A stretch of 53,328 nt of DNA, the filler included, from Jimgerdemannia flammicorona (Eukaryota), in assembly GCA_003990765.1 (NCBI GenBank). It is 2 parts of 2 records of this genome, joined end to end, with 100 filler letters (N's around TTAATTAATTAA, not from the genome) between each part and the next. Parts side by side here need not be neighbours in the genome. Positions count along the whole stretch, not along the records: positions 1 to 26,615 come from RBNJ01000712.1; 1 more part is not named here. The stretch is one strand, 5' to 3'. Within the stretch, counting starts at the first letter, position 1; the number at the start of each line of letters is the position of its first letter. A program made the translations under genes and the position numbers. The notes below the pieces were generated by a model that was not told the DNA's origin, ran no database searches, and saw only the letters and a list, made by a program, of their open reading frames with translations. This document shows positions 6,009 to 40,255 of this stretch, piece after piece.

Positions 6009-7544
6009 TGTAATGGTGACCCCAGAATGATGACATCAGTACAGGAGACAGCCTTTCCTTGCAAGCCACCAGATCGGAGCACAAGAAGATCATACGGTAT
6101 ATGAGATGAGTAATGATGACCAACTGTGAGTTATTGTGACCACAATATAAGCATCTTGAAGAATATAAAAGAAGGATCAAGAAACCACAGTAGCAGCAAC
6201 CAACAAGAACCACCAATCCCAAAATAGCTCAAAGACTTACCACAAATGAAATGCCTGCTGCCTGCCAAACCTCAAGGTCAAGGAATCATCAAGACACCTC
6301 AGTTGAAGAAAGGATGTTCTAAGACATCAGAAGAGCCATGGGGACCCACTCAAGAAGGACTCCTAGTATCAACCTGGGTACTGCAGACCCTTATTACTTT
6401 ATTCTCTACTGCTATGAAATAGAAACAAGGATCACCATTGCTACCGAATGCCTTCAAATGTGGCAGGAGTATGAAATAAGAAACCTCCTCTGCTGGGAGT
6501 TCCCACAGGCTAGTACTTAAGAGCTACAAGATGCCACTTCCATGGATATACGCGAAATAAGGATAGCTAAGAAGATCCATCAGATCTTCAGGCATGCACC
6601 ATGGTTGATCCCCAACTTAGAGTATGTTAGAGTCTCGGATTTCAGAGACCTGTCATCCTGCTGTATCAATACACTAAAAGCCAAGGTGGCTACAGAAGCC
6701 CAGTCCACCATCACCCTCAATAGTGAAGAAGTAGAAGACTTCTGACATCCCATCCTTCAGGACAATCCAGACCAATTCCTGCAAGGATTGATCTCAGTAT
6801 TCCAAGGCCCAAGCATCTAGGTTAGATCTCCCCAAGACCCCACATTTGTCTCCTATTTTGTGGAAGAGAACTATATAGACTAGAGAGCTCCAGATCTTGT
6901 TCCTGATTTCCTTGCCACCAAATGTGATGATGTCATTGGTGATGATGTCATCCCACATGACATCGACATATGCGAAGTATGTGAACTGCATGATGACAAA
7001 TTCACAGATCTCATCTCTTTCAGTGATGATGATGATGAAGCCCCTATGGTCCTGAACTTTCTGCTCTAAGTTCTTTATTATACTGGATAATGCCAGCACC
7101 GGTATTCTCATGTAACACTGGATAATGCCAGCACCAATATTCTGAGGTAATGCAGAATTGTTCCAGCACTGGTATTTTGATGTCACACTAAATAATACCA
7201 GCATCCTGAACCTGTACAACCATCAGTGCCAACCCTGGAACTTAGTAGTTTTAGTTATTGGAATTTATATTTAGCTTTATATCTTAGCAACCATTGAATT
7301 GTATTTTGTATAAATACCTCTCTTATTTCCTCTGAAATAAAGTCAGTCAAGTTCACCTATACACACTTCCTTGCAAGCAATCTAAGAGATAACAAGACAG
7401 TTAAAGATATGAAGTTTGAGAACTATAAGACCTTGGGAAGGTACTCCAATAAGAACTTGCTTATAACAAACTTGAGTTAGTCTAAGAGATATATCTTGAA
7501 GAGAATCTGGCATATTTGAAGGACTCAGTGACCACTATGTGACA
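6009..7544 (+). repeat. 5' LTR of element 1 (1536 bp)
   Basis: Starts TG and ends CA, followed by ACT+TGG. TATAAATA at 7309, AATAAA at 7336, ~35-bp tandem repeats at ~7082-7205. The first 186 bp recur after the PPT at 13244. Confidence 0.85.
6251..7069 (+). pseudogene. Decayed ~272-codon ORF inside U3 of LTR 1, homologous to the LTR ORF at 50141-51292
   Basis: Single frame from ATG 6251 to TAA 7067 with five internal stops (TAA 6320, TAA 6518, TGA 6743, TAG 6818, TAG 6881), all explainable by C>T/G>A. Acidic C-terminus. Motif matches to the 383-aa ORF. Confidence 0.75.
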
Positions 7545-7600: not shown

Positions 7601-10600
7601 ATGAACAACCCCTACAACAACTACTCTGACTACCAGAGTCACCCCTGCAAGAATACAAGACAAGATGGAAATATATCCCCCCACATTCTATGGATATACT
7701 ACTGAAGAGTCAATTCTGACCTTCATTGAAGACTTTGAACAATTCACCACCATATAAGCCCTTGGTGTGGATGCACAATTGGCCCTTCTACCAGTCAGCC
7801 TTAGAGGACCTGCCAGAGACAAGTTCAATGCAGCCACCATTGCTGATGCTGGTACAGCCAAACTTGCCAACATGAAGGCCTTCCTCAGAACAACATATTA
7901 TATCAAAGAGATCAAGCAAGCTCTCAAGGACCAACTCAATACTATCTGTCAGAGACTTAGTGAAGATCCCAACTCATTCTATATCTGAATTTGCCACCAG
8001 ATTGTCTTGGCTGACTATGATGACTGCCTCAAGGAACAAATAGCAGATTCAACCTTCCTCAAAGGAGTTCACCCTGAAATTGCCCTAGCAATCTGGTCTA
8101 CCCCAGCTATACTGACCCTTGATCAGAAAGTGGTCTTTGTACAGAGATATTGGACTGCCAGACACCCTGCCGAACACTCAATGGAGAAAATAACTAGCAT
8201 CAAGATGGAGTCAACAAAGCCAACTAGTATCATACCTGCCATAGTTATAAACAGACAATCAACCCCACCTACCCCCAAGACAGTCAAAGCTGACCCAGTG
8301 GAAGAACTCACCAAGTAGTTTGCCAAGATGACTGCACACCTTGGTGATATTGTTAGAGAAGTCCAAAGCACCAACAGGAGACCAGTGCAGAGATTTGCAG
8401 CCACTACAGAAGAATGCAATATCACATGCTTCAGATGTGGAGAAGAAGGCCACTATGTAAAGAGTTGCATGACTGAAACAAGATGCAAAGCCCAACCAAG
8501 CAATGTTAGCAGAACTAGAGAACAAACCAATGCAGTAGTCATTGAGGAGATTGGTGACACTGATGATAAAGAATACTACAAGGAGCTTGAATTCTACCCT
8601 ACTACTGAAGGTACCAGAACCCAGTCCAAGCCCTATGACAAGAAGGGCAATAGCAAGCCAGTTGGAAGACCAAAGAAGACCCCAACTGTCACTATTCAAA
8701 GTAAGACCCAATCCGAGGAGATTGATCTAGACATAGAGTTAGATGAAGCTGCTTGCCAAATTATCGAAGGCACTACTCCAGTCTCAGGAGAAAGTGAAAG
8801 CAAGAAGGAACAGAAGCTGTACAAGACCAAGATCCACCAGTATGATATCTACAAGGACCTCAAGAAACAGAAGGTCAATGCCACTTTTGGACAGCTAGCT
8901 GAAGTTCCTGCCTTCAGACAGCAGTTGAGAGTAGAACTTGCAACTACTGCCAAGAATCAAGAGTACAAGATTGTAGAAGCTCACAATGTACAGGAAGAAT
9001 CTGAGAACTCAGATAAAGAATCCAAAGACCAGCACAAGACATCAGCCTATACCCTATGTCAGATTGAAGACTGTATCTTTGATGCTATCATTGATACTGG
9101 TGTTGGAGGATGCCTCATGAGCAAGAAGATAATTGACTGCCTAGGTTGGGACATTGAAGAGTCCACTAAGATGGTCTATGTCACAGCAGATGGTACACGA
9201 GCTACCCCCCTTGGCAAAATCTGAGAAGTCCCCATCAAGATAGGAGGAGCTACCATTCCAGTAGATGTGATTGTTACAAGTGCCACTAACTATAACATCC
9301 TCATTGGCAACCAATGGCTTCACAAGGCCAAGGCCATCATTGATCTCAATGCCCAGAAGATGCAGATTAACTATAGAGGAAGAAAGGTATGAGTCTCTAT
9401 CAATATCCACAAAGGAGTCCTACCAGACATGGAGGAAGGAGATGAAGAGGATACAGAGGTCTTCATATACTTAGTGAACAAGAACAAGAGCAAGACACCC
9501 AAGCTCACAGATGAGCAGTGGTACAACAAGATCATTGATGGCTATGCCCCTCAAGGAAGATGCCCCCATGGTACTAGGATGTACTGCTCCAAACACCTGA
9601 ATGACTGCTGGTCCTGTATCAGTGAAGTCAGGAAAATCCACCAATAGAAACATAAGCAAGAAGCCGCCGAAGCAAAAAGGAAAGCTGAAGAAGATGACCA
9701 GCCCCCAGAGCTTCAAGCTGACAGTGATGATGAGGAGGAACAAGAATCAGACATCATCCTTAAGGTCAAGAAGTTTCACTCTGAAGCCAAGATCCCAGAA
9801 TATAAGACTGAAGGAGCCATAGAAATGGACCTTGCCAGCATTCAAGATGCTACTCTCGAACCACAAACCACCACCCTACTTGGCACTGGAATTGGAGTCA
9901 AGTTACTAGAGAACTATGCCAGAATTATCAAGACCAGGAGCAGTCTGGCCAAAAGCGAAATCTCAGTTAAAGGAGGAGTAATTAACCCTGATTACACTGG
10001 CAAGATCTTCCTCATAGTCAGGAATCACAACCACACCACTCTCTTCGAAGTCAAGAAGTATGACAGGATTGGCCAGATGCTGATCCACGAAATCAAGAAG
10101 TCCAAGATCATTGAAGCCATTGAACTCATCAAGACCAAGAGAGGAGAACAAGACTTTGGATCTACTAGAAGAGGAGCCTATGCTGCCACCAAGATTACCA
10201 AACTTGAGCACAAGAAAGACAAGGACCAGAACAAGCACACATATATCATTGGAGAAAAGTTTCTCCTAGAGGAACAACTCCTCAAGATCTTGTACCAGAA
10301 CAAAGAAGTACTTGCTACAGACTTCAGAGATATCCACAATCAAGAACCCAAGTACTACCATGAAGTTGACACTAGTGATACCAAGCCCATCTACCAGAAA
10401 GTCAGACCCATACCACCTGCCTACAGAGAATGGCTGTGAGCAGAACTCAAGAAAATGGAAGAAGCTGGAATCATCAAGCAAGCTATCAGTCCCTGGGCCT
10501 CACCCATTGTCCTTGCCCTGAAGAAAGGAAGCAAGCCTGGAGAGTTTGTACCAAGACTCTGTATTGACTACAGGAAGCTCAATACCATTACCAAGAAGGA

Positions 10601-11690
10601 TAGGCAGCTCTTGCCAAATATTCAAGAGATTCTTACCACTCTTGGAAGTGAAGCCAAATACTACACTACCTTGGATCTGTTCTCAGGCTTCCATCAGATT
10701 GGTCTCACTCAAGATACCAGTGAGAAATCAGCCTTCATCACACCTGACGCCACCTATATCTATCTGCGAATGCCATTTGGAATGTGCAATGCCCCAGCAA
10801 GTTTCCAGTGAATGATGAACAGAGTCTTCAGCAATGAGATTGGAAAATGGCTCTTTGTCTATGTTGATGATGTGATTATCTTCAGCAACACTACATGGGA
10901 ATATATCAATCACATACAGCTAGCCCTCAAGAAGCTCAAGGAGCATGGCCTCTACATCAAGCCTAAGAAATATAAGTTTGCAGCTCAGGAAATCGCCTAT
11001 CTAGGACACCTCATCAACCAGACTGAAATCCACACAGACCCTATGAAGATCGAGGCTGTTGCAGCCTACCCAAGACCCAGAACAACCACAGAAGTCCACG
11101 CCTTCCTTGGACTGGCCAGCTATTACAGAAGATTCATCAAAGGATATTCCAACATTACAGTACCTATCTATGAGCTACTGAAGAAGGAAACCAAATTTGA
11201 ATGAACCAAGGAGCACCAAGAAATCTTCAATGAACTCAAGACCAGGTTGACCCAAGCACCTATCCTCAGAAGACCAGACTGGAACCTAGAATTCATCCTG
11301 CAGACAGATGCGAGTGCTATAGGACTTAGAGCAGTCCTAGCTCAGAAGAAAGATGGACATGAATATGTCATCTCTTATGCAAGCTGAGGTACCCATGGAG
11401 CAGAACAAAACTACAAGTCATGTAAGCTCGAATGCTTAGCAGTAGTTTGGGCAGTAGATAAGTTCCACTACTACCTAGCTGGAAAACACTTCACCATTCA
11501 AACAGATCATTCTGCTCTTGCCTGGCTATTTCACACACTGAACCTCAAAGGAATATATGCCAGATAGATCTACAGACTGCAAGAGTATGACTGTACTATC
11601 AAGCACCACTTAGGAAAGACCAACACCAATATCAATGCACTCTCAAAGATACTCTGAAACACCCCCATCAAGACTATTCAACATGAATAA
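7601..11690 (+). pseudogene. Gag-pol of element 1: gag, CCHC knuckle, aspartic protease, Cys/His module, dUTPase, RT, RNase H
   Basis: Same-frame ORF fragments: CFRCGEEGHYVKSC knuckle; AIIDTG protease; dUTPase motifs RSSLA, GGVINPDYTGKI and RGEQDFGST; RT SPWASPIV..CIDYRKLN..MPFG..YVDD; RNase H FILQTDAS..TDHSAL..NALS. Many premature stops. Start approximate. Confidence 0.9.
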
Positions 11691-12888
11691 GGAGCTATAC
11701 TATAGATTAATCAGCTACCTTGAGCAGTGGAAGATGCCCAACCACCTCGAACTCTGGACAATCACCATCATCAACTGGACTTGGAAATAGTTTGAACTAG
11801 ACAACACTACACTCAGAAAAGAAGGAAAGCTAGTAATACCTGAACACAAGAAGTATCAAGTAATGAAGGAAGTATATGAGCAAGGATACTTAGGAGGAAC
11901 CAATACATATGACAAAGTAAGAAGAATTATGTGGTGGCCCAAGATGGAAGAAGACCTGCACCAATTTGTCAAAGGGTGTGACAAGTGCCAAAAACAGAAA
12001 TAAGATCAGCAAGACCAGGCACTCAGGTCATCAATAATTGAGCCTATTCTCTTCCACCACATTGTAATGGATATCATTGGACCACTACCAGTAATACTAT
12101 CAGAAAACTGCTATATTATAGTTATTGTAAACCTCTTCACTAAATGGATAGAGGCAGGAGCATTACAAGAAGCCAATGCCCTCTCTATAGCCGACTTCCT
12201 GCACCAAGAAATCATCTGCCACTACAAGACACTGAAGCAAATCACAACAGACCACAGAATGGAATTTGTCAATAGATTCTACAAGATAATGTATCAGAAA
12301 TACAAGATCCAGCACATCAAGACCACCACATACCACTCTCAAGAAAATGGAGAGACAAAGAGAACTAATAAGACCCTCAAGAACATCCTAACAAAGATCT
12401 CAGAGACATATGAGAATTGGGATAACTATCTCCCAACTGCCCTCTCTGTTCTATGAGACATATGGTCACAGAGTACACACTTTACCCCAAGGGAGCTGCT
12501 CTTCGGAGAAGAAGATTCTGATGGAACCTCAGCCACAAATCTAGATCTAACTTGGAGACAGGTTGATGCAGAAATCCAGAGACTACACCAAATCAGGGAG
12601 AAGGCTGAAGATTATATCACTAAGTCACAAGTACTGATAAGGAAGAATGCAGAAAAGAATCACAAGACCCTAGAACCCATCCAAATTGGAGAAAAGGTTC
12701 TACTGTATTGAAATATGGTAGAAGTCTCATGGTCATGAAAACTGGAGCCTAAATGGGAAGGACCCTTCTATATACAAGATATCAAGGGAACTACCTTCTG
12801 GCTTAGAAAAATCTCAGAGACCATACTGCCTACTATGGTATATAGGAACAGACTCAAGAAGTACTATGAACCTATACAAGAGAAGTAA
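11683..12888 (+). pseudogene. Integrase of element 1 (own ATG, different frame from RT-RH)
   Basis: MNKELYYRLISYL..., zinc-binding region WWPKM..CDKCQK, core MDIIGPLP..FTKWIEA..ITTD..ENGETKR, and GPY/F-type KWEGPF. Stop at 12886-12888. Confidence 0.88.
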
Positions 12889-13243: not shown

Positions 13244-13429
13244 TATAATGGTGACTCCAGAATAATAACATCAGCACAGAAGATAGCCTTTCCTTGCAAG
13301 CCACCAGATCAGAGCACAAGAAGATCATACAGTATATGAGATGAGCAATGATGACCAATTGTGAGTCATTGTGACCACAGTACAAGCATCCTGAAGAATA
13401 TAAAAGAAGGATCAAGAAACTGCAGTAGC
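13244..13429 (+). repeat. Truncated 3' LTR of element 1
   Basis: 186-bp direct repeat of 6009-6194 with 17 differences, all transitions. The terminal TG has mutated to TA. Confidence 0.9.
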
Positions 13430-23984: not shown

Positions 23985-26525
23985 TTACTCGTCACCGTTG
24001 AGACCGTTCCCATCGCCAACGACGGTCACGACCTGACCGTTCGGCATAACGATATCGAAGAAATCGCCTGAGTCGGTGAAAGTGAACTGGGACGCCATGT
24101 CTTCCGCCGTCGCATCAGGGTCCGACTCTTCTTGCTGGGCGCCACCCATCATCATGGACTGGCCCATCATCAAGGAGGACGAGTCCACCATGCCCATTTC
24201 CGGCTGTGCCATTGGAGCCCACATCTGCATGGGTGTCTCCATACCCCTGCTCATCATCACGGTTTGGTTGTTGTAGGCCGTTGACGCATCGGGGAACGGA
24301 AACTCCTCCTCGTCGGCGCTACTCATCATGGACAGCGGAGACGAACCGTGAGGGCCCCGGGTAGTGCGGTACGTGGAAAGATAAGCGGCCGTGGGCTGCA
24401 TCTGGGAAGGGTGCTCCATGTTGGTGGGCGTTGGCGGCGTGACCTCCGTGATGGGTGGCGGGATGGGGATGTTTGCTGGCTTGGCGGAAGGCTGGTCGCC
24501 AGCAGGCGACTGGAAGGACGCTGGGGCGAGAGGGGTCGGTACGGAAGCGGCGCGACGGTGGCGGATGTTGTTATTGGTCTGTTCGGCCACGGCGTAGACA
24601 CGGTGCTGCCTCTGTTCCGGTTCCGGGGGGGCCTGCACAGGGGTGGGCGTGCCCAAGGCGATGTACCTGAAGTTGTCGTAGCTGTGCCTTCGCGTTGGCT
24701 GCTTCACCTCCAACGTAGAGTCGGTGTTCAGGTTGAGCTGATCGACGATCCGGGTCACCTTGTGCATCCTCTCATCGGCAGCGGTGATTTCCAAAACCTC
24801 GTTCTTAAGCGGCTGCGCCAGTCCCTTCAACGAATGCTTGAAAAATCGCGACGCTTGCTTGCCTTCTGTGAAATCGCTGCACTGCGTCCACGAGATGGAG
24901 CCGTTGGGACCAGTAGGCATGCCGTCCTTGGTGTTCTCCATGTAGAAAAGCGGGCCACCGTTCAACTCGATTTCGATCTTGGCAAAAACGCCATCCAGCA
25001 AAATGTAGTCCAAGCTCGTGATGGCTTCGAACGAGAAGTCCATCTTAAAGTGGCTGGTGTTGTCGGTAATGTGCCAGCTCATCTTGCGCTCGGGGATGTT
25101 GTAGTAGCAAAGCAGATCTGTTGCGTTGATCTTCATGCGGCGCCAAGAGTTGATGATTAGAGTGTCGGCAGAGAACAGATGAGCAGCGACATTTGGCGAC
25201 GGTGCCGAGATAAGGTGCGGGTTTTGCATCGTATAGGGAGGTCGGATATCGAGCTGTGCCGGCATTTGCTGCCGTTGTTCTGTGTATAGGGAGAGAAGGA
25301 AAAAAAAAAGTTCGTTTAGAGAACTGCTTTCACCCCCTTTAATTTTTCTATTTTGCTTCCATTTCGGGTTGTCGTTAATTTTTTTTTTTTTTTTTTGGAC
25401 AGCGCTATATATAAAACACTTACCGTAAGGGTTCGGCATCGGCGTCGGTGACATCATCGACCCAACGGGAGTAGGCGAGAGGTACCTCAACTGAGGCTGC
25501 GGGCTAGGCGAGGCCGACGGACTTGGCGAGAAAGCCGGGCTAGGAAAGGCGGAGACGCCGTTGGACACGTAGGTCACACCGCCTGGGCCCTGCAAGAACT
25601 GGGGCCCGCCCATTGCGGCGAACTGAGGAGTAGGCGGCCATATACCAGGCATGGAGATACCAAGGCCGGCGTTGGGATGACCGTGCATGGGTGGCGGTGT
25701 GGACGAGCGCATACCCGGATTCATCTGCTGTTGAATATTGTGAAGCATGTCGCTGCTGTACGAGCGCGGAAGCGGAATGCGGCCGGCGTTGGGGTGGCCG
25801 TGAGGAGGTAGACCGGCACGGAAGGGGAACATACCGGCGGGATGCATTTGGCCGGGGAAGCCCGAGGCGAGAAACTGGGCCTTCATGGCCTCCTCTTGAA
25901 GGAGGTGGGCGCGCTTCTGGATGGTCTTGACCTTGGCCCGCCGGTTCTGGAACCAGATCTGAATGGACCGCTCGCTCATGTTGAGCTTCTCGGCTAGCTG
26001 CTCGCGGACCTTGCTGTTGGGCGAGGTGTTGCTGACGAAAGTCTCCTCCAGCACGGCAAGTTGCTCGGGCGTCGCGCGCGTCCGCTTTTTGGACGTCGAC
26101 GAGGTGGAGTGTTTCGATTTTGATGATGCCGAGGTGTTGTTATCGTCGTCCTTTTTGGCGGCACTGCCTTCCATTTTGACGGCGTCTTCATTCTTGTCCT
26201 CTGACCCGCTCCGGTCGTGCTCGTCATCGTTGTCGCGGTTCTCGTCGCTCTCGGAGCACGAGCTCCTTGGGCTATCGCAGTATTTGTTGTTTGCATAGTC
26301 CACGCCAAGATCAGGGGTGGGCGATTTCATTTTGAGTTTGGAAAGGCTCGCCATGGTGTCGGAAAAAGTGCGCTGCAGCTGAGGCGCGTTGCCGGGAACA
26401 GCCAGCGTGTTAAAGTTGTATATGTCGTCCTCCTCGCTGTCGTATGGGTTGTTGAAGTGCACGCCCACGAAGTTCTTCTTGCGCGGCGGCTCATTCATGG
26501 TGTAATCGGGTGCCCGGACAGCCAT
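23985..26525 (-). CDS. Homeobox transcription factor, Phx1/Hoy1/Pah1-type (~798 aa if the 144-nt intron 25280-25423 is spliced)
   Basis: Homeodomain KKRTRATPEQLAVLEETF..MSERSIQIWFQNRRAK. Conserved central domain SWRRM..DLLCYY..PLFYME..QCSDFTEGKQAS is typical of this family. Upstream exons could be hidden by the gap at 26616. Confidence 0.92.
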   Translation of the reverse strand: MAVRAPDYTMNEPPRKKNFVGVHFNNPYDSEEDDIYNFNTLAVPGNAPQLQRTFSDTMASLSKLKMKSPTPDLGVDYANNKYCDSPRSSCSESDENRDNDDEHDRSGSEDKNEDAVKMEGSAAKKDDDNNTSASSKSKHSTSSTSKKRTRATPEQLAVLEETFVSNTSPNSKVREQLAEKLNMSERSIQIWFQNRRAKVKTIQKRAHLLQEEAMKAQFLASGFPGQMHPAGMFPFRAGLPPHGHPNAGRIPLPRSYSSDMLHNIQQQMNPGMRSSTPPPMHGHPNAGLGISMPGIWPPTPQFAAMGGPQFLQGPGGVTYVSNGVSAFPSPAFSPSPSASPSPQPQLRYLSPTPVGSMMSPTPMPNPYGKCFIYSAVQKKKKKINDNPKWKQNRKIKGGESSSLNELFFFLLSLYTEQRQQMPAQLDIRPPYTMQNPHLISAPSPNVAAHLFSADTLIINSWRRMKINATDLLCYYNIPERKMSWHITDNTSHFKMDFSFEAITSLDYILLDGVFAKIEIELNGGPLFYMENTKDGMPTGPNGSISWTQCSDFTEGKQASRFFKHSLKGLAQPLKNEVLEITAADERMHKVTRIVDQLNLNTDSTLEVKQPTRRHSYDNFRYIALGTPTPVQAPPEPEQRQHRVYAVAEQTNNNIRHRRAASVPTPLAPASFQSPAGDQPSAKPANIPIPPPITEVTPPTPTNMEHPSQMQPTAAYLSTYRTTRGPHGSSPLSMMSSADEEEFPFPDASTAYNNQTVMMSRGMETPMQMWAPMAQPEMGMVDSSSLMMGQSMMMGGAQQEESDPDATAEDMASQFTFTDSGDFFDIVMPNGQVVTVVGDGNGLNGDE

Positions 26526-26615
26526 TGGGATATGATCGATTTTGTGGGATGAGGGGAAGGGAATGCTAGTGTGAAGGGCACTGCCAGTGGTGAGAAGTAG
26601 TGAGAGGTGGGGGGG

Positions 26616-26715
26616 NNNNNNNNNNNNNNNNNNNNNNNNNNNNNNNNNNNNNNNNNNNNTTAATTAATTAANNNNNNNNNNNNNNNNNNNNNNNNNNNNN
26701 NNNNNNNNNNNNNNN
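26616..26715. other. Artificial assembly spacer: 44 N + TTAATTAATTAA + 44 N
   Basis: Symmetric 100-bp N block with a central palindromic six-frame stop linker. Confidence 0.95.
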
Positions 26716-29700
26716 CGAAAAGCTGTCTTCTCAATGTCCTTCTCATCAATGAGAATCTGGTAGTAGCCATTTCACAAATCCAGTAGAGAAAAGGTCTTGG
26801 CCTTGAAGATTTGGTGTAGCAACTCATCAATCCTGGGCAAGGCATACTGATTCTTGATAGTGATCTTGTTGAGGGCTCTGTAGTCAATACACATTCGCAG
26901 AGAGCCATCCTTCTTCTTGACAAATAGAATTGGGGCTCCAAATGGAGAGCAGCTGGGTTCAATGTATCCTTGGGCCAGTAGTTTGGTCAATTCATCCTTG
27001 AGGGTCTTGAGCTCAGGTTGGGCTAGTTGATAGATACTCTTGTATGGAGGTTCAGATCCTGGAATAAGATCAATTCTATGTTGGATTTGGTGCTTGGGTG
27101 GGAGTCCTTGAGGATCTTGGAATACATCTTGGAATTCTTCAAACAGTTCTTGAGCTTCTGTTGGAATTGGGCTGCTTGTAGCTTCAGTGACTTCTTGTAC
27201 AGTACAGATGAAGTAGGTGTTTCCCTTTTTTCGAGAGAGTCTCTTCATTTGAATGGCAGAGATGATTTCGATTCCTTGATGGTTGGTACCTTCCTGGGGT
27301 GTCAGAGTGATCTTTCTGCCCTCATGGGTCAGGTTAACCTCGTTGGTTCTCCAGTTGATGTCTGGGTTGTGCTGGGTCAACTAGGCTTTTCCTAAGATAA
27401 TGTCTTGTCCTAGGAGGTCTACAATGCTGAAGTCCAACTTCTCCTGATATTTGCCAATCTTAAGCAAAAGGTCTTCGCAGATCTTAGTCAATGGTGCAGT
27501 CTTTCCATCACCAAAGGTAACACTTCTTTTCTCCATAGTTGGTCTTCTTCAGGCTCCAATCCTCTTGGCAGTCTTGGTACTGATGTAGTTTCCAGTAGCA
27601 CCACTATCAAGCAAGATATTGACATTTTGTCTGTGGACTTGGCCTGTGAACTTGATGCAACTATCCTCCTTCTTGATGGTATTGAGCTCTTCATCCTCGT
27701 TGTTGTCCCAATTGCTGTCAGTCTCCTCGAAGTCAGTTTCTCCCCATCCTTCGCAAGGAGGGTTGTCTTGTTTGGGTTCCTCAGTCTGTTGAGCTTGGCG
27801 CTTCTCAGATTGAATTTTGAAAACTTTGGAGAGGCATGCATGGCATTCACCAACATGTTCCATGCAGTACATTCGAATGGAATGAGGGCATCGTCCACAT
27901 GGTGCATAACCATCTGCAATTCTCTTATACCAGTTTTCATCATCTTCCTTCATGGTAGTGACCTTTTGACTTGGAGGTTTGTTGGTAGATCCAAACCCTT
28001 TCTTGCCACGGTCTGTCTGGGAGAGTTCGGGGACTTCTTCAATGGTGAGATCTTGATGGATTTCTTCAATGATTGCTTGGGCAATTCTTTGGCCTATTTT
28101 GACTTCAAATGAGGTATCTCAAAAATTTCGCAAAATGACATAGATTTCACCAGTAAATCCTTGGTCAACTACTCCTCCTCCTAGCCCAATGTTGAACTCT
28201 TTGGCTAGGCTGCTTTGCTCAGCAAGGCGGATGTATATACCTCTGGGGGCTTGCATTGCAATTCCTGTTCGCACTGTAGCATTGGTACTTGGTGGGATGG
28301 TGAGGTCTTGGCTGCTGTAGAGGTCATATCCAGCATCAGTTGGGTGAGCCTTGGTGGGGATGGTAGGCTTGTACCATATCTTCTGTACTTTGATGACATT
28401 CTCGGGGTTCTTCTTTCCTGGGCCTTCTCCAATGACAGTAATGTTCTGATTACTGGGTTCACCTGATCTGTTTCTCTTCTCAGGGTATTTGACTGAGATG
28501 TGTTCTGCTTTCTTGCAGATGAAGCACAATCCTTTTTCACGGAGCTGCTTCTTCTCATCCTCAGTGGGAGGTCTGGGTCCTCTGGGGTTTCGCTGGTTCC
28601 TTTGATCATATCTTTAGTCATATCTTTGATCATTCCTTTGATCATTTCTCCTGGTAGGATTTCTCCTATCTTGGGTATCTTTCTTATGTTCTTGATTTCG
28701 TGGAGCTTGTGCAGCAAGGATTTCACGGGCTCTTCTTTGTACTTGGGCAAAGCACCATGAGTAGTGGGGGCATCCTTGGGGAAGACCTTGTTCCTTGATC
28801 TTCTGGGTGAGCCAGTCTGGTAGGGCTGCAAAGAGATGGTTGGCTCTGGTACCATTGATGGCCAAATTGTTCTCCTAATAGGTAAGTCCAACTGTTTTGA
28901 GGTAGGCATCCATTCTGGTGGCAAAGGACTCTAGATCCTCTTCACCATTCTTGTGGAACTTCATCTGGGACAGTTTGTTCCATGTTTCTTGTATGTAGGC
29001 CGCATTTCGGAATTTGGTCAGTAGCAAGGCCTTGAGTCCTGGGCCTGCTTTATAGTCATCCCAACCTGGTCTATTGTTGCCAGGTGCTTGTCCATTGACT
29101 TGTGGGCGGGCTTCCCAGGTTACTGGGTGTTGTTCCAAGGTTCACCAGAATTCGGCTGCTGTTCCAGTGAAGAATGTGGCTACTGTTTCTACTTGTGCTG
29201 CTGATGTGGCAAACAGCTGTTGAAGGGTGCTGTTCTGGTTGTGGTGAGCATTCCTATAGATACTCGGTTGTCATTCCATTGGTTTGCTCAGTAGCCTGTG
29301 TCAACTGCATTGATGAAGTTTTCGATGTCACTGTTTTTTCCACTGAATGTTGGGATTCACAAGGTCTTGGTTGGTTTGTTCTGTTCAGCAATCTGTCCTA
29401 CTATCCCTGCTAGTGCTGCTAGCTGGGTGATCAGTGCTGTAATGTTGGCATCTACCATTGTGTTGACTATTGGTAGTGGGCCTGTTGGGGTAGATTCTCC
29501 TGAAGATTATTCCACCTAGTGGGGTTGTGGTGCTGTATGACTTGGGGTTGCTTGATTCCCAGATATTAAGTCAAAGAGTCCTGTGAGAGAGGGTAAACCA
29601 AATCTCGGTATAGGTGGCTGAGTTGGTTCTGAGGTCTGATCTTCTTGACCTGTAGTTCCTTGGTAAATTTCTAGGCCTGCTGTTCCTTGTTGGCTATCGT

Positions 29701-31172: not shown

Positions 31173-34100
31173 GTACCCATGGTGAGATACCTGAGGTGGG
31201 ACCCAAGAGTAGTGCAGCTTCTGGTGAAAGGAGTTCCCACTGTTACTGCTGTTGAGATGAGGAAGAGAGTCAAGGAGATCATGGAGGAGTATGGGGAGGT
31301 GGTTGATATTGGGTTCTGAGTGTGGGAAGGAACCTCCCTCTGCACAGGGGATGTTGACATCAGGATCCGGTTGGCAGGGAGAGAGGCTACTGGGAAGGCT
31401 CGGGACTGGCCCTCAGTGATGGTGTAGGGGGCTTTCTTGTACAAGGTGATGAGAGTGAAGGGGAGCAAGGAGGAGGAGGAGGATTTGTTGGAAGTACTGG
31501 AGGAGTTGAGTAGGGTGGTGGAGAGGAGGGCAAAGGCATGGAAGGCATTTGAGAAGTCGACGCATCTTGAGGTGGTTGGAGAGAAGCAAGTCTGCATCAA
31601 TAAGGAGGTGTGGGAGTGGTCCCAAGGGTGCTGAAGGCAGAGGGAGTTATTGGAGAAAATGGGAGTGGAGGTGAAGAGGAAGATAGGAGGTAGTGCAACC
31701 ACTGGAGGTGCTGAGGCAAGTGTCTGGGCTGCTGGTAGTAGAGGGAATGTGGAGGGGGGTCAGGAGGAGGCCAAGAAGGTGCTGAGCAAGAACCTGTATG
31801 AGGATGGTACATTGGAGGTTTGGGAGGAAACCTGGGAGGATTCACCTTCTCTCTCTCCCCTTATCAGAAGGGGACCAGTGGTGAGAGGTAGGGTGGTGGA
31901 GGATGTGCAGATGTGCAGAGCTCAGCAGGTGTGCTTTGGAGTCCCAAATGTGGAGAAGGGGGGATTGGTAAAGGCAACTAGAGAAGAGAAATTGGTGGAT
32001 GTCCCAGAGAAGGGATGGAATGAGTCAGCAAGTGTAGGGGTTGATACTACAATGTTGGATGGAGGGAGGCCAGTGACCCCAGGAGGGAAGGAGGTGGGGA
32101 ATCTGCTCTGGGTGTGCTGGATGATGAACAACTTGGCAGTGGAAGAGCTGGGGGAAGTTGACCTCCAAGTGATGAGCAATAAGCACTGGATAAGGATCCT
32201 GAAGGGCGATGGAGTGGTGGCAGTGCTGAAGGCAGAAATTCTGATGGTATACTTAGAGGAGGAGGGGTATGAGGTTGATAAGGAGAGGGAGGCTGCTCTG
32301 GCAGTTGTGGCGGGTGAGCAGGCTGCCCACTGTTGGGCTAAGTGACATGGACTGCAGCTCTGGCAAGAGGCTTGCTTGGAGTACTGCAAGGAGTTTGAGG
32401 AAAAGGAGGATGGGGAGATGGCTGAGATCCTGGCTGAATTGGAGGCTAAGAGGGCTGAGGAGGCAGAAGCTATTGCAGAGTGCAACCTGGATAGGGCACA
32501 GGAGGAAGTGGACATAGAGCAGTAGAGGACTCATTTGAAACTATATAATCTCTCTTATGAATAGTACAACCAATATTTTCTCTTTGAATGTGAATGGGCT
32601 ACAGGGGTCTTTTCAGTGCTGGAATATTTTTACTTGACTAAAGGGATTAGAGGCTGATCTCTTTCTTTTGTAGGATGTCAGATGTGAGGATGACTTGGAA
32701 GGGTTAGAATGGACAAGGGAATGGGGAGGGGAGGCAGTTTGGATGAGAAAGGTCAGGATACTGGTTCGGAGGGGCAGAGGGGAGATCCGGGATGTAAGGA
32801 ACTAGGGTGACAGGCTGGTTTGGGGAGAATGAATATGTGCAGGCTGGGAGCCAACCATGGTGGGTTCCTGCTACTGCCCTGCTATGAGGATTGAGTGTGT
32901 CAATTGGGTGAAGGGCCTCAGGGAGAGTGGGGTCCTCACTGAGGTGGGCATAGACTTGCTTGGTGGGGACTTTAATATGCTCAGAGATGCATTGGTAGAT
33001 AGGACCGACAGAGGGGGGGGGGCTGAGGGTAGGAGTGGTGGGCTGGAGGCATGGGAGGAGGTGGAAAGGTTGAGTGCTCTGGTGGATGCTGGTAGGGGGT
33101 TTTGGGGTGACAGGAGGGTATACACACATTGGACTGAAGGCCTGGGGACAAGAATTGATTGGATTTTGACAGCAAGCTGCCGGGGTCTCCATGTGTGGAA
33201 GTCACTGGAGATTGAGTGGTGTCCATGGTCGGATCATTGGGGTTTGCTAGGGCAGGGACATTTTGGGGGGAGTGGGGATGGGCCTGGACATTGGCACCTC
33301 AATTTCTCTTTGCTAGCTGATAAGATGCTGTGGGATAAGTGGGAGATAGAGATTTGACAGAAGGTGGAGGGCTGGATACAGGAGAGTGCCCCAGTCAGTG
33401 CCAGGTGGTTGAGGTTAAAAGATGCTGCCAGGGTCTACTGGAGTGAGGCTGGCAAAGTGGCTGGAAGAGGGAGAAGAAGTAAGGGAAGATGGGCTTCTGC
33501 TAGACTGACTAGGCTTTTGAAGGATTGGGCTGGTCTGGTGGAGTGAGAGGGGGGGGAGGACTGGAGAGTAAGGTGGGTGAAAATGGAAATTGGGGAACTA
33601 CAACAGGTGCTGCAGGATGAGGAGGAGGCGCAAGCACAGGGCCTGATGGCAAGGTTATGATGGCAGGGGCAGGAGGAAGGAGAAAGGCCTTCAAAGTATC
33701 TCATGAGGGCCCTTCAGGTAAGGAGGGTGAAGCAGAGATGGGAGGGAGTAGAGACACCTGATGGTTTACTAGTACATAGTATACAAGACATTCTCAGTAT
33801 GTTGAAGGGGTGCTGGAGTGGACTTTGGAGTGAGGAGGAGGATGGAGCAGGTGATGCCACCATTGACCATGCTCTGGAGGACTGGCACCCACTACAAGTA
33901 GAAGGGCTGGGTGACTTGGTATCACTAGTTTGAGAGGAGGAGATTCAATGGGTACTGGCCATGACTACTTTGGGCACAGCACCAGGGGAGGATGGTCTGC
34001 CCTGGGACTTCTGGAAGAAGATGGTGGGAGTTCCTAGAATACTGGGAGAGCTGACGGCATTGTGCAATCTGATACTACAGTCTGGGCAATGGGTGGGGGA

Positions 34101-36279
34101 GAAGGACCTTGGGCTGGTGATGTTGATTTTTAAGAACAAAGGGAGAAGAGAGGACTGGAAGAACTGGAGGCCGATTATGCTGCTGGATATGGACAGAAAG
34201 TTGGTCACTAAGGTGGTAGTTGCTAGATTGCAGAGTGTGGTCCAGCAGATCCTAGGTGAAGAGCAGCACAGCTTTATCAGAGGTCGGCTGATTAGAGATA
34301 GCATGGCTTGGGTGCATGGGGTTATTGAGGGGGCATGGGCATGTGGACTGGATAGTTGACTGGTTTTCCTGGATCAGGAGAAGGCATATGACCATGTTCA
34401 ATGAGTATGGTTGGCGAGAGTACTGGACAGAATTGGCATACATCCTCAGTTCAGGAAAGTAATGATCAGCCTACTGGAAAGGAGTAGGGCTGCTCTTATT
34501 TGCAATAGTCACAGGGGGGTGGCTTTTCCTCTGGGCAGGAGAGTACCTCAGGGTGACCCTCTATCCCCCATTCTGTATACTCTATCCTTGGAGCCACTGA
34601 TAGATAGGATTCATAGGAAAATAGTTGGGCTCTCCATCTATGGTATTGGGTGGAAAGTTGGTGCCATTGCGGATGATATAGTGGTCAGTCTGGGATCAAT
34701 TGAGGATGTCATAGAGCTCAAGAAGACAGTGGAATGGTATGAGGTCCACTCTGGGGCTCAGCTCAATTGGCACAAGTGTGAGATGATGGTGTTAGGCAGG
34801 GGACTAGTAGGAGGGGATGTCATTGGAACAATTGTCCCAGTGGGAGAGGTAGTGTAGTACCTGGGTATATTTCTGTCAGTCTATGGGTCGGTCCTTCCAA
34901 GACCCTAGTGAGAGCAGAGAATTGCAATCTGGGAGAAAGCTTTGCAGAGTTGGAGTGGCCATCATCTGTCTTTGATGGGGTGGATCTCAATTCTGAATAC
35001 TTACTGGCTTCCAAAGTTATGGTATTTAGCATATCACCTGGACTTTCCAGTCTGGGTGGTGAAGAGGTTAGTGAAACTGGCCAAAAGGTGGATCTGGGCT
35101 GGCAAATGAAGTCAGATCAGTTGGGAGGTTTTGTCTCTACTAGTGGTTAGAGGAGGCCTTGGGCTGGTGGACTTCCTGAAGTGGCTATTCTGCTTATGTG
35201 TGTGGTGGCTGAAGAGGGTAGTAGAGTTGTGTAGGAGTAGCTAGGTTCCCCTGATGTAGAAGGTTTGGGAGATGAGGTCATCACCAAGAGGCTCTATGGG
35301 AGATCTACTGTCCTTGGTTAGACTTTGGAACATTGGAAGATTATGATTCAAAGACTTCTGGTGGGGAGTAGTTGATGGTGCTCACCATATTGGAGTTCGA
35401 TGGCAAGAGAAAGAGGGAGAGGAGCCATGGGACCCAGTCATGTGGAGATGGGACTGAGTACTGCTGGGGGGTGTTCCTCTTTTGGACTTTGATATTGGTG
35501 ATGGAGTAGAGTACCAGCGGGGACCAGGCCAGGATCTTTGGCCCAGCAGCTGGCAACTAGCAGGTATTGGTGAGGAGTGAGACTGGAGTGGCATTTGAGC
35601 ATGGAGTGATAGAGTGTGATGCTGGATGCCGCCAAAGTATTGGGTGGTATGGTGGTAGATGCTAAGGAGGAATGTTATGCTCAACTTCTGATCAGACCAT
35701 CTCATAGAAGGGGGGAGCTTTGACTGTAAGGAGTGCCATAATGTAGGACAGGAGGGGGGATATGTGCAGATGCCTGAACATTGGCTGGGGGAATGTGAGG
35801 TGCTGAGTGACTTTTGGTTGGCAGTTGGTACTTAGCTTGGTGTAGTATATAGGGGAGATAGTGAGCAGGGTTGGTGGGAGGATTTGAGGGATAGATTGGT
35901 AGGGGGGGTGGGAAATGAGTGGCTCACCTTGGTGGGTTTTGGCAGTTTGGATGGAGTTAGCTGGTCACTGGTTGTTTGTTTTCGAAGATGAGAGGAGCAT
36001 GAGTTTGGGGGTACAGGTTTTGCAGTAGCAGGGGTTGATGGAGGATATAATGACAGGCTGGTGGCAAGGCTGGGGTCTGCAGGGAGGTAAGAGGTATCAA
36101 TTGGTAGAGAAAATCTACTGGAGGAGTGGGGGGAGAATGAGGGTAGTGGATGGAAGGGTAGTACTTATGTGAGAGGGTAGGGGGGGGGACCCCCCTGTGG
36201 GGATTGGGTAGTGCGAGAGGTGCATGTATTTACCAATAGAATGATCTGGTGCATTAATAAAGGATGGAGTCCAAGTGAC

Positions 36280-36312
<33 letters not shown>
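31173..36312 (+). mobile_element. L1/Tx1-like LINE (ORF1 interrupted by element 3; decayed ORF2 APE-RT-CCHC; poly-A tail)
   Basis: ORF2 ATG at 32557 (MNSTTNIFSLNVNGL); GGDFN, RIDWIL, SDH, APGEDG, NWRPIMLL, PQGDPLSP, IADD; C-terminal CKECH..EHWLGEC; AATAAA at ~36256 and poly-A at ~36283-36312. Confidence 0.92.
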
Positions 36313-36314
<2 letters not shown>

Positions 36315-39300
36315 AGCACTACTCTACTCCCTTCCAGTAGGCTGATCATTGCCACTTGGAACTGTTGAGGGACACCAATCTTATCCAGTACCTTTGCCCA
36401 CCAGATCTGCTTAACATGGTCATATACCTTCTTCTGATCTAGGAAAACCAGTCACTCATCTAGTCCACTGGCTCATACCCCTTCAATAACACCATGTACC
36501 CAGGCCATGCTATCCCTAATAAGTTGGCCCCCTACAAAACCTCACTGCTTCTCACCCATGACTTGCTGGGCCACCTTCTGCAGCCTCGCTACCACCACCT
36601 TAGTGACCAACTTTCTGTCTATATCCAGTTATCCCTCCTGCTCTTGTTCTTATAAAGCAGTGTCACCAGCCTCAGATCCTACTTGCCCACCCATCTCTCT
36701 GACTATAGTACCAAGTTACAAAGAGTCATCAGCTCTCCAAGCACTCCAGGGGCTCCCACTATCTTCTTCCAAAAGTCCCAGGGCAGACCATTCTCTCCTG
36801 GTACTATGCCCAGCATAGTTATGACAAGAACTTAGCAAATTTCCTCCTCCTGTACAGGCAATACTAAGCTGCCCAGCCCATCTGCCTGTGGTGGGTGCCA
36901 ATCCTCCAAAGCACAGTCAATAGTGGCAGCATCAGCCCCACTCTCCTCCTCACTCCACAAATCACTCTATCTCTCCTTTAATGAGCTGAGAATGTCTTGT
37001 ATACCATACACCAGCAGATCATCTGAATCTAGTACCCCCTCTCATTGCTGCTTTACTCTCCTCACCCAAAGGGACCTCATGAGGAACTTAGAGGGCCTCT
37101 TCCCTTCCTCCAGCCCCTGCCAACATAACCTTGCAGCCAAACTCAGAACCTGTACCTCCTTCTCCTTCTGTAACATCAGTTGTAATTCTGCAACCTCCAT
37201 TTTCACCCACACTAATCTCCAGTCCTCCACTCCCTTCAGGGCCAACAGACCAGCCCAATCTTCCAAAAGCCTAGGCAGTCTAGCAGAAGCCCACTTCACC
37301 CTCTTCCTCCTCTGTCTTCTGGCCACCTTGCCAGCCTCAATCTAGTAGACCCAAGCAGCCTTCTTCAACCTCATTTACCAGATACCAACTGGGGCACCTT
37401 CCTGTATCCAACCCTCCACTCTCTGCTGAATGTCCTCAGCCCACCTGTCACACAGTACCTTCTCATCCAACAAAGAGGAATTGAGGTGTCAATATCCAGG
37501 CCCATCCCCACTCCCTCCAAAATGACTCTGTCCCAGTAGCTCCCAATGATTAGACCATGGACACTACTCTACCTCTAGTGATTTCCAAACATCCAAGCCC
37601 TAGTAGTCCACCATCAGCACCCAGTCAATCCTCATTTCCAAGTCACTTATCCAGTACATGTATACCATTCTATTACCTCAGAACTCCCTGCCAGCATCCA
37701 CCAGAGCACTCAGTCTTTCCACCTCCTCTTATGCCTCCAGACCCCCACTCCTATCCTCAGCCCCCTGTCATCCATCAGTTCTATCCACCAGTACATTCTG
37801 GACTATATTAAAGTCCCCTCCAAGCATGTCCACTCCAGCCTCTGTAAGGGTCCCACTCTTCTGAAGACCCCTCACCCAATCCACACACTCACCCTGTACA
37901 GTAGAGCAGTAGTTGGAACCCACTATAACTGACTCCCAACCTGGTTGTATCTACTCTCCCCAAACTAGCCTATCTCTCTAGCTCCTCACATCCTGTATCT
38001 CCCCTCTGCCTCTCTGGACCAGAATCCCAACCTTGTCCTTCTAAACTACCAAACCTCCCTATTTCTTTGTCCATTTCAGTCTATTCAAGTCATCCTTATA
38101 TCTGATATTCTGTAAAAGAAAGAGATCAACCTCTAATCTCTTCTGCCAAGCAAAAATGTTCCTATGTTGAAATGAACCCCAAAGCTCATTTATATTTAGA
38201 GAAAAAATATTGGTTGTATTGTTTATAAGAAAGATTTTTAAATATTAAGAATATCCTCTACTGCTCTACATTCATCTCCTCCTGTGCCAAGTCCAGATCA
38301 TATTCAACATCCACCACCTCCTCTTCAACCCTCTTAGCCTCCAATCCAATCAGTAGTTCAGTAAGTTCCCCATCCTCCTTTTCCTCAAAGTCCTTATGAT
38401 ACTCCAAACAGACCTCCTACCAGAGCTGCAATCTATGTCTCTCAGCCCACCAGAGGGCAGTCTGCTCACCAGTAGCAACTGCTAGCTCTCTCTCTCTTGT
38501 CTTATTGACCTCATACTCTTTCTCTTCTAAGAAAACTGCAAGCACCTCTGCCTTCAGAGCCTCTCCCACTCCATCTTCATGTAGGATTTGTGCCCATTGA
38601 TCATCACTAAGTACTCTCAAGTCCACTTCCCCCAACTCCTTAGCCACCATGTTGTTCATTATCTGATACATCCACTGGAGGTTGCCCACCTTCTTTCCCC
38701 CTAGAATTGCTGATCTTCCTTCCCCCAGCATCAATATATCAGCCCCTGCACTTGCTGTCTCATCTTTCTCCTCCTCAGAGACACCCACCAATTCATCCTC
38801 ATCTGCCACCACCACCCATCTCCCTTTTACCACCTCAGGAACTCCAAAGTATACTTACTGGGCCCTCTATATTGGTACATCCTCTACCACCCTGCCTCTT
38901 GAGGCTAGACCTTGTCAAATAAGAGAAGGGGTGTCCTCCCAAACCTTAAGCATACTATTCACATATAGGTTATTGCTAGTCACCTCCTTGTCCACTTTAG
39001 GCCCCTCTACCACCATCTCACTATCTTCACCAGCCCAGACACTTGTCTTGGCTCCCTCTGTATCCTCAATTCCTCCAGCATCCCTCTTCGCCCTACTCTC
39101 CAGATTTGCCAGTAGCTCTCTCTATCTCTTGCATCCTTAGGACCTTTCCCACAGCACCTTATCTATGTGGATCTGCTTCCCATCTACTACCTCTAAATAC
39201 ATTGACTCCACATATACCTTCCAAGCCTTTGCCCTCCACTCTACTATACTACTCAGCTCCTTCAGTGCCTCCAACAAATCCTCTTCCTCCTCCTCACTCC

Positions 39301-40255
39301 TCTTCACCCTTGTCACCTTATACAAGAAGGCCCCCTATACCATAACTGAAGGCCAGTCTCAAGTCTTCCCAGTAGCTTCCTATCTGGCCAACCAAAACTG
39401 GACATCAATATCTCTAGTCCTAAATGAGGTCACTTCCCAGACCTGGAACCTGACATTGACCACCTCTCCATACTCAACCATGACTTCCTCAACTCTTCTC
39501 CTCATCTTCACAGCAGTCACTATGGATACCCCTTTCACCAGAAGTTGTACCACCCTGGGGTCTCATCTTAAGCAGTGTGTTATCAGAACACACACCTCTC
39601 TAACAGTCAGCCTAGCCTTCAGCACATCCTCCAATGGCCCTGCCTTCTCAAAGCCCACCTCTACTTCTTCCAATCTCTTCAGGAACTTCATAGATACTGC
39701 TTCAGCCACCTGCTTAGCAATTAGCCCCAATATCATTTTTGCTATCACTATTAAGCCCCAGAAGCATAAAGTAACTGTGAACTCTGAGATTGACTTCTTG
39801 AGTAACAGGTCCACCACCAGACCCATTACACTATCTGTCAGGTCTCCCATCCATCCAAGCCCCATCCTCTCAGCCCTGCTATCAGCAGTCACATCTGGAT
39901 TTTTTTCCAGATCACCAGTCACCACTCTATCAGCAGTTATACCCCCAGCTACTACTCCACCAGCTCTTCTACTTAACACCTCCAAGAGAGCCCCTCCTGG
40001 CCCCCCAGCAGCAGTCTTCTCCTTGTCACCCTGCAGCCATCTATCCAGTTCAGCCAGCTGGTTCCCCTATCTGACCTTTTTAGCAAAACTCATCTACTTC
40101 CCTCCTATCTGTACTATACCTCCTCCTTCACCACCTCTGACCTCTCTTCCTCCTGACAAAGTACTTGCTATCCCCAACTCTACTCTCTGACCTCTCTCCA
40201 CATACTGTCAGCCAAATACACTGGGGCCACCCTGCCCAGTACACTCCATAGAACT
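36312..40255 (-). mobile_element. LINE of the same family on the minus strand (ORF1, APE and part of RT), interrupted by the plus-strand LINE
   Basis: Reverse complement is collinear with 31173-34500 and 45250-49230. RT similarity runs right up to the neighbour's poly-A tail. Confidence 0.9.

Follow-up and report, generated by a model that had tools for sequence, protein, structure and literature searches.

A shared, unnamed Cys/His module between protease and dUTPase in two Ty3/Gypsy lineages with mirrored domain order

The question raised by this locus of Jimgerdemannia flammicorona is what a short Cys/His-rich motif is doing twice beside a dUTPase, in two retrotransposons whose polyproteins are differently arranged. 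The locus is a window of 53,328 bp (the whole stretch of DNA analysed, two joined parts of assembly GCA_003990765.1), with a G+C content of 42%, in which several dead retroelements lie beside fungal-looking host genes. Two of these, elements 1 and 3, are long terminal repeat (LTR) retrotransposons of the Ty3/Gypsy kind. Element 1 reads, on the plus strand, gag-CCHC-aspartic protease (PR)-module-dUTPase-reverse transcriptase (RT)-RNase H-integrase; element 3 reads, on the minus strand, gag (frameshifted)-CCHC-dUTPase-module-PR-RT N-terminus. The motif is the core of a discrete, conserved Cys/His domain, here called the module, and we consider it on balance probable that this is an unnamed, independently folding accessory module, which holds one zinc and perhaps tethers the dUTPase.

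The two core motifs, WYNKIIDGYAPQGRCPHGTRMYCSKHLNDCWSC in element 1 and WYKRIADGYAPCGRCPHSIRMYCMEHVGECHAC in element 3, lie where the initial annotation of the sequence had placed them (table 1), with the addition that the second, whose strand had been left unstated, is on the minus strand. Over the module, the two elements are identical at 28 of 48 positions (58%; BLASTP E 4e-22). A profile of 11 modules recovers both from the six-frame translation of the window (E 7.5e-31 for element 1 and E 1.6e-29 for element 3) and no third place there, at E<=10 with filters off. The same annotation had judged the module to be more conserved than the domains adjoining it, and for this pair it was right: identity amounts to 24/40 residues in the module (60%), against 21/92 in PR (23%) and 61/173 in the dUTPase (35%), the last figure being that between element 1 and P0001, a 96%-identical copy of element 3. 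The N-termini of the RTs are 42% identical (33/79), and the gags can be aligned only around the CCHC knuckle. What had been described as two RT types turned out to be two different Gypsy lineages, both carrying the module.

The mirrored order, gag-PR-module-dUTPase-RT in element 1 and gag-dUTPase-module-PR-RT in element 3, is also real. An assembly chimera, considered from the outset as a possible explanation, can be ruled out because both orders recur in uninterrupted reading frames on independent contigs, in the relatives listed below. Besides, the gap of Ns in element 3 falls inside RT, downstream of the dUTPase-module-PR region.

Relatives of the module (labelled P and L) were sought with the profile search that the initial annotation had proposed. 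An exhaustive HMMER scan of 1,835,955,588 representative proteins at E<=1e-3 returned 11 matches, ten of which are credible (P0001-P0010; E 3.6e-31 to 9.1e-5). The remaining match, P0011, is a 1596-aa Cys-rich repeat protein that reached E 2.2e-4 over 16 stretches, and it was rejected as a chance pattern match. A first word-index search for the module gave P0001 only; with the 11-sequence profile, word-index searching gave 13 matches among 2220 candidates, 12 of the 13 with PF00692, and contributed four new relatives. Two loci were confirmed among 17 pattern matches in JGI metagenomes, the scan of viral contigs gave no locus, and a search with the dUTPase region of P0013 returned only P0013 itself and P0017. 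It is a rare family, of which about 20 members were found in all.

Neighbouring domains were tabulated for the 19 sequences with a full-length module. Three have the order PR-module-dUTPase (element 1, P0007 and P0013, an intact open reading frame (ORF) of 514 aa that continues into RT) and six the order dUTPase-module-PR (element 3, P0006, P0008, P0009, L002 and P0015, an intact 560-aa gag-CCHC-dUTPase-module-PR). Another six have dUTPase-module and then the end of the sequence (P0001, P0002, P0003, P0012, P0014 and P0016). Two are too short for their context to be read (P0005, 82 aa; P0010, 63 aa), and the last two have no dUTPase or PR within reach, that is, P0004 (53 aa before the module and 52 after) and L001 (107 before and 213 after). 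The proposal that the module travels with dUTPase thus holds for the 15 of 19 copies that adjoin one; it does not extend to P0004 and L001, nor to P0017 and P0018, which have a dUTPase and no module.

Some further motifs were seen around the module. W-C-x-C-x2-C occurs downstream of it in P0004 and L001, and L001 also has C-x2-C-x5-C and C-x2-C-x6-C there. The L001 sequence (a metagenome contig, 2-1120) contains two in-frame stops, and its upstream part matches Pfam SCNM1_acidic with 30.2 bits (cut-off 27). The acidic linker that follows the module of element 3 (27790-27700, minus strand) has Trp in G-W and W-D contexts (…CEGWGETDFEETDSNWDNNEDEE…), and similar acidic Trp motifs are found downstream of the module in L001 and P0004. 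In the gag of the dUTPase-module-PR lineage there is a conserved C-P-H ... W-C-F motif (around 158-165 in P0015 and 164-175 in P0001), against which the module profile scores very short partial matches.

That the module is a unit can be seen from elements that lack it. P0017 and its 1116-aa cluster mate P0018 read CCHC x2-PR-dUTPase-RT-RNase H, with the module absent. With element 1 they share 42% identity across 663 aa of dUTPase-RT-RNase H and 31% across gag-PR, and by these alignments they fall into the same broad lineage as element 1. When P0013 is aligned with P0018, residues 2-76 correspond to 354-425 and residues 147-514 to 405-784, and the stretch of P0013 from about 77 to 146, within which lie the module and its charged tail, has no counterpart. 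Because both flanks can be aligned and the module stretch cannot, the module has been inserted into, or deleted from, the PR-dUTPase linker as a discrete unit. Moreover, it is not needed for dUTPase function, since the P0017 and P0018 elements do without it.

The module spans about 48-50 residues. AlphaFold2, run on the 11-sequence alignment, predicts with a mean pLDDT (predicted local distance difference test) of 86 a helix at 6-14, a β-hairpin at 21-29, a short turn and a second helix at 39-49, with C-P-H (23-25) placed within the hairpin and C38-x2-C41 at the start of the last helix. In a model of the whole 560-aa P0015, the module blocks have pLDDT values of 58-76, and the two flanks score 41-47 and 29-35, a profile in keeping with a folded bead strung between flexible, acidic linkers. 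C23 is invariant in the 11-sequence alignment, and P24, M29, Y30, C38, C41 and E7 are conserved in at least 90% of the sequences. The ten sequences with the order dUTPase-module show no variation at C457, P458, M463, Y464 and C475, and at least 90% conservation of H459 and C472, conservation of H25 in this group being 90% or more. From the Cys/His consensus first proposed, C-x-H and C-x2-C were retained, and the middle Cys/His (MYCxxH) was not, reading MYSSSM in several intact-looking relatives. Because this middle pair is not conserved, there is likely to be one C-H-C-C site of four ligands instead of six, and the ligand pattern and the predicted fold suggest that the module probably binds one zinc through C23, H25, C38 and C41. 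In the second zinc site of treble clef and RING domains, Cys-x-His lies in a hairpin knuckle and Cys-x2-Cys at the N-terminus of a helix. The predicted secondary structure of the module would fit such a site, with C-x-H in a hairpin knuckle and C-x2-C at a helix start; unlike those domains, however, it has no first C-x2-C pair and no cross-brace, its spacing differs and no fold match was obtained.

Neither the two window copies of the module nor any of its relatives yielded a Pfam family, in line with the initial annotation, which had failed to recognize the module. The only rows were weak: a DUF1451 zinc ribbon (E 0.06) and, on P0005, zf_RING_Vps8_fungal with 18.7 bits (cut-off 27.4). There was no usable match in the ESM Atlas. 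Fold searches with the module model gave no match at E<=1e-3 in the PDB with Foldseek, none at E<=1e-3 in BFVD, and none at Z>=5 among 48,161 chains in a wide VIA-align search, where the best score (Z 3.2) was to TetR-type helix-turn-helix regions. A literature search that included main-text passages of Novikova et al. (2010; PMC2864245) yielded no description of the module.

Several named domains were tried and rejected. The module is not a zf-CCHC knuckle (C-x2-C-x4-H-x4-C), its pattern being C-x-H-x12-C-x2-C, without a PF00098 match even at E<=10. Nor is it a fungal Zn2Cys6 cluster (PF00172; C-x2-C-x6-C-x5-12-C-x2-C-x6-8-C), as it has three conserved Cys, another spacing and no Pfam match, or the H2C2 domain of integrases (PF17921; H-x3-7-H ... 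C-x2-C), which matches only the true integrase at 11836-12000. A PDB sequence profile search returned only designer pentatricopeptide repeat (PPR) and alpha-solenoid repeat proteins; they were discarded as homologues, given that the matches were reached by summed repeats and no single stretch passed. An assignment to PPRs, which are tandem 35-residue helical hairpins, was rejected as well, since only columns 9-25 resemble the designer consensus and the module is a single copy without an array. These columns correspond to its N-terminal helix, WYNKIIDGYAPQGRC (window 9519-9569; WYxxIIDGYxxxGR), and the likeness is probably a convergence of a helix-turn motif.

The picture we favour, with some reserve, is as follows. 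The module sits in the flexible PR-dUTPase linker of Pol in two lineages of fungal Ty3/Gypsy LTR retrotransposons and most probably holds one zinc in a treble-clef-like manner, with Cys-x-His from the hairpin tip and Cys-x2-Cys from the point where the C-terminal helix begins. It is an optional part, gained or lost as a unit and occurring also outside dUTPase contexts. After protease processing, the module may stay on the PR-proximal end of the dUTPase, whose motifs look intact in the sequences of undamaged copies. There, as a nucleic-acid-binding (or protein-binding) finger, it could keep the dUTPase at the reverse-transcription complex.

This proposal is modelled on the betaretroviruses. According to the passages seen of two papers (PMC1802613, PMC4531489), the dUTPase of Mason-Pfizer monkey virus (M-PMV) and mouse mammary tumor virus (MMTV p30) is a transframe fusion with nucleocapsid (NC), a homotrimer whose NC domains bind oligonucleotide. 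On that description, both systems have a zinc finger, putative in our case, covalently on a trimeric dUTPase, just upstream of PR, and gag(NC)-dUTPase-PR is the order of element 3. The finger of the betaretroviruses, however, is the gag CCHC, whereas the module is an unrelated extra domain (C-x-H...C-x2-C) placed where the dUTPase faces PR, and the function of the finger, demonstrated there, is one that we infer here. The bdelloid rotifer element Juno offers another parallel. In the portion consulted of Rodriguez and Arkhipova (2017; PMC5408684), a paper whose theme is modules common to different retroelement types, Juno is described with a dUTPase between PR and RT, followed by an extra Zn knuckle. 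The likeness is that of an accessory zinc motif beside a retrotransposon dUTPase, and Juno differs in its animal host and in having the knuckle on the RT side of the dUTPase. The Juno knuckle may tether its dUTPase likewise.

A number of observations weigh against this reading. Zinc and nucleic-acid binding by the module are deduced from the ligand pattern and the model, and the clustering of the four putative ligands from predicted secondary structure only. The fold searches were uninformative on the module, with Z 3.2 at best, and the 560-aa model of P0015 is poor overall (mean pLDDT 49). Among the putative ligands, H25 is replaced by Y in P0008 and P0010, and C38 by G in P0014; these three may be decayed copies. 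P0004 and L001 have the module without a dUTPase, and P0017 and P0018 the reverse. Finally, the module adjoins PR as consistently as it adjoins dUTPase, and, being as tightly linked to the one as to the other, it suits a role on the PR side equally well.

A role of that sort is the main rival explanation. The module would be an adaptor or spacer of PR, acting in its dimerisation, the timing of its activation or the display of a cleavage site, or separating a dimeric PR from a trimeric dUTPase, without any direct role in dUTPase targeting. Wherever both sides of the module are visible, PR is indeed on its other side, about 45-50 residues away through an acidic linker, as in the three PR-module-dUTPase sequences (in P0007 as a PR tail) and the six dUTPase-module-PR ones, and the flanks of the module are predicted to be disordered. 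The module of P0004 and L001, however, has neither PR nor dUTPase nearby, P0017 and P0018 have the same PR-dUTPase junction without a module, and no retroelement PR is known to require such a domain. We regard a PR-side function as unlikely.

More doubtful is the capture of a host DNA-binding module from a small host family of Cys-rich, regulator-like proteins, for targeting or regulation and not for dUTPase function. Such a source could be represented by sequences of the L001/P0004/P0005 type, from the host or a third party. P0004 and L001 carry further Cys motifs, and the C-x2-C-x6-C of L001 has the look of the first half of a Zn2Cys6 cluster. The modules of P0005 and L001 stand beside those of elements 1 and 3 in the module tree (82/88). 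Nevertheless, L001, with its in-frame stops, may be another dead mobile element, no module-bearing sequence has a Pfam Zn_clus match, and transfer may have gone either way; there are only three such sequences, one of which, P0005, is too short for context.

An artefact, whether chance Cys/His similarity, an unrecognized edge of PR or dUTPase, or a mirrored order made by misassembly, is already refuted: element 3 does abut two runs of Ns, and short Cys-rich motifs can match by chance, as P0011 did through 16 summed stretches, but the strength of the pairwise match, the restriction of profile matches in the window to two copies, the Pfam envelopes of dUTPase and PR, which stop well outside the module, the clean absence of the module from P0018 with both neighbouring domains complete, and the recurrence of both orders, with the N gap confined to RT, leave it next to no credibility.

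As for the history of the module, a dUTPase tree of 14 rows (without outgroup dUTPases, and leaving out L002 as decayed, P0014 as short, and P0018-P0021) separates the three PR-module-dUTPase sequences plus P0017 from the ten dUTPase-module sequences with support of 96/96, so the dUTPases follow the architecture. In the best module tree (19 rows, 54 columns), the modules of element 3 and P0001 group with the PR-module-dUTPase modules and those of P0005 and L001 (82/88, not starred), apart from the other dUTPase-module copies. This best module tree is incongruent with that of the dUTPases, as the idea of a module shuffled between lineages would predict. On the other hand, the approximately unbiased (AU) test rejects neither a tree in which the dUTPase-module copies are held together (p 0.15) nor one in which the PR-module-dUTPase copies are (p 0.17). 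Because congruence is not rejected, the movement of the module between lineages is plausible, as these trees suggest, but unproven, and one old origin of the module, followed by its loss in the branch of P0017 and P0018, is a possible alternative history. A bolder scenario, to which we give little credence, is that two separate Gypsy lineages, one with its dUTPase before PR and the other with it after PR, have each taken up one and the same rare zinc domain where PR and dUTPase meet, perhaps from a small host or third-party family of Cys-rich proteins. If this were true, selection would have converged on linking the dUTPase of a retroelement to a finger that binds nucleic acid, as in the betaretroviral NC-dUTPase, and it would follow that such a dUTPase is of use only when tethered within the particle.

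Ty3/Gypsy elements with a dUTPase have already been described in fungi. The main-text passages of Novikova et al. (2010; PMC2864245) report PosPlaTy3-3, -4 and -5 of Postia placenta, elements of Phanerochaete chrysosporium and Tmt1 of Tuber melanosporum, with the dUTPase, depending on the family, at either end of Pol (N- or C-terminus) or between PR and RT, and suggest independent acquisitions. Since a variable position of dUTPase was thus published, at least in those passages, the mirrored order as such is not new. The elements described there are like ours in combining LTRs, gag-CCHC, PR, RT, RNase H and integrase with a dUTPase, element 3 having the Pol N-terminal layout and element 1 the PR-RT layout. 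They differ in that the same passages mention no module, whereas here one is shared between PR and dUTPase.

Table 1. Position of features in the window
Locus	Feature	Position	Strand	Evidence or remark
Element 1	5' LTR core repeat	6011-6194	+	184-nt direct repeat, 91% identical to 13246-13429
Element 1	gag CCHC zinc knuckle	8421-8471	+	PF00098 E 2.5e-5, residues 35-51 of ORF piece 8319-9221
Element 1	aspartic protease PR (DTG)	9057-9389	+	one in-frame stop, 9222-9224
Element 1	Cys/His module	9498-9653, core W..C 9519-9617	+	putative ligands C-x-H, C-x2-C
Element 1	dUTPase domain	9783-10166	+	PF00692 E 8.9e-23, residues 46-173 of piece 9648-10436
Element 1	RT + RNase H (in-frame stops)	10440-11384	+	RVT_1 E 1.2e-12 and 6.7e-11; RT_RNaseH_2 E 1.5e-17
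Element 1	integrase (H2C2 zinc domain + rve core)	11791-12453	+	PF17921 E 9.4e-16; PF00665 E 1e-9
Element 1	3' LTR core repeat	13246-13429	+	purine-rich tract before it
Host	MFS/TRI12-like transporter gene	about 16.4-17.9 kb	minus	
Host	homeodomain + TRF2/HOY1 PH-like gene	23988-26615	minus	
Assembly gaps	two 44-base N runs	26616-26659 and 26672-26715		
Element 3	RT N-terminal part	26716-27380	minus	RVT_1 E 1.2e-4; RT sequence 27380-26775; cut off by assembly gap (N runs)
Element 3	aspartic protease PR (DSG)	27384-27647	minus	one in-frame stop; ILGKA motif in piece 27548-27384
Element 3	Cys/His module	27795-27953, core 27932-27834	minus	
Element 3	dUTPase domain	27984-28364	minus	PF00692 E 1.9e-16 and 4.1e-7 (two pieces); in-frame stop 28119-28121
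Element 3	gag CCHC knuckle (CFICKKAEH...)	28476-28526	minus	read from translation

The two copies in the window can be assigned to Ty3/Gypsy by their parts (table 1). Element 1 has LTRs, gag-CCHC, PR, RT, RNase H and integrase in Gypsy order, with a dUTPase of the trimeric type (PF00692) within the polyprotein. Its PR gives sub-threshold matches to Asp_protease_2 and gag-asp_proteas (residues 247-300), can be aligned with the PR of P0018, and is in a frame that runs on to ...RGRKV. In element 3, the parts seen are gag-CCHC, PR, the N-terminus of RT and a PF00692 dUTPase, the remainder being lost at the N gap. Its PR matches gag-asp_proteas and Asp_protease_2 below threshold (residues 158-188 of piece 27552-28118), and the CCHC knuckle of P0001, homologous to that of element 3, reaches PF00098 E 0.0043, under the curated cut-off.

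Both copies are dead. In element 1, 7758-12708 is one reading frame without frameshift and with 30 in-frame stops in 1650 codons. TGA accounts for 19 of the 30, and the two TGA stops that can be aligned to P0013 correspond to Arg in that sequence. Element 3 has stops, gag frameshifts and a truncated RT. Element 1 has an observed-to-expected CpG ratio of 0.09, element 3 one of 0.20 and the neighbouring host gene at 23988-26615 one of 1.05; the low CpG and TGA-rich stops of the elements look like a transposon-aimed, methylation-linked decay of CpG to TpG.

Both N runs lie immediately next to where the homeodomain/HOY1-PH host gene starts, and they cut off the RT of element 3. Elsewhere in the window, a non-LTR retrotransposon with Exo_endo_phos and RVT_1 matches is present in three copies of 70-74% identity, at 31200-35600 (plus strand), 36300-39600 (inverted) and 45500-49900 (plus strand), two of which form an inverted pair.

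What is new here is the shared Cys/His module, a rare accessory domain of elements whose kind was already known, and the addition is modest. In practical terms little is gained: the family is rare, the copies in the window are dead, and fungal Gypsy elements with dUTPase and a variable layout were already described. The list of domains in retroelement Pol is nevertheless short and well catalogued, and an unnamed folded domain under selection extends it. The module is a further case for how accessory modules move between elements, and the constant position that it holds in both of the mirrored architectures, between PR and dUTPase, provides a concrete handle on how dUTPase is delivered to the reverse-transcription complex.

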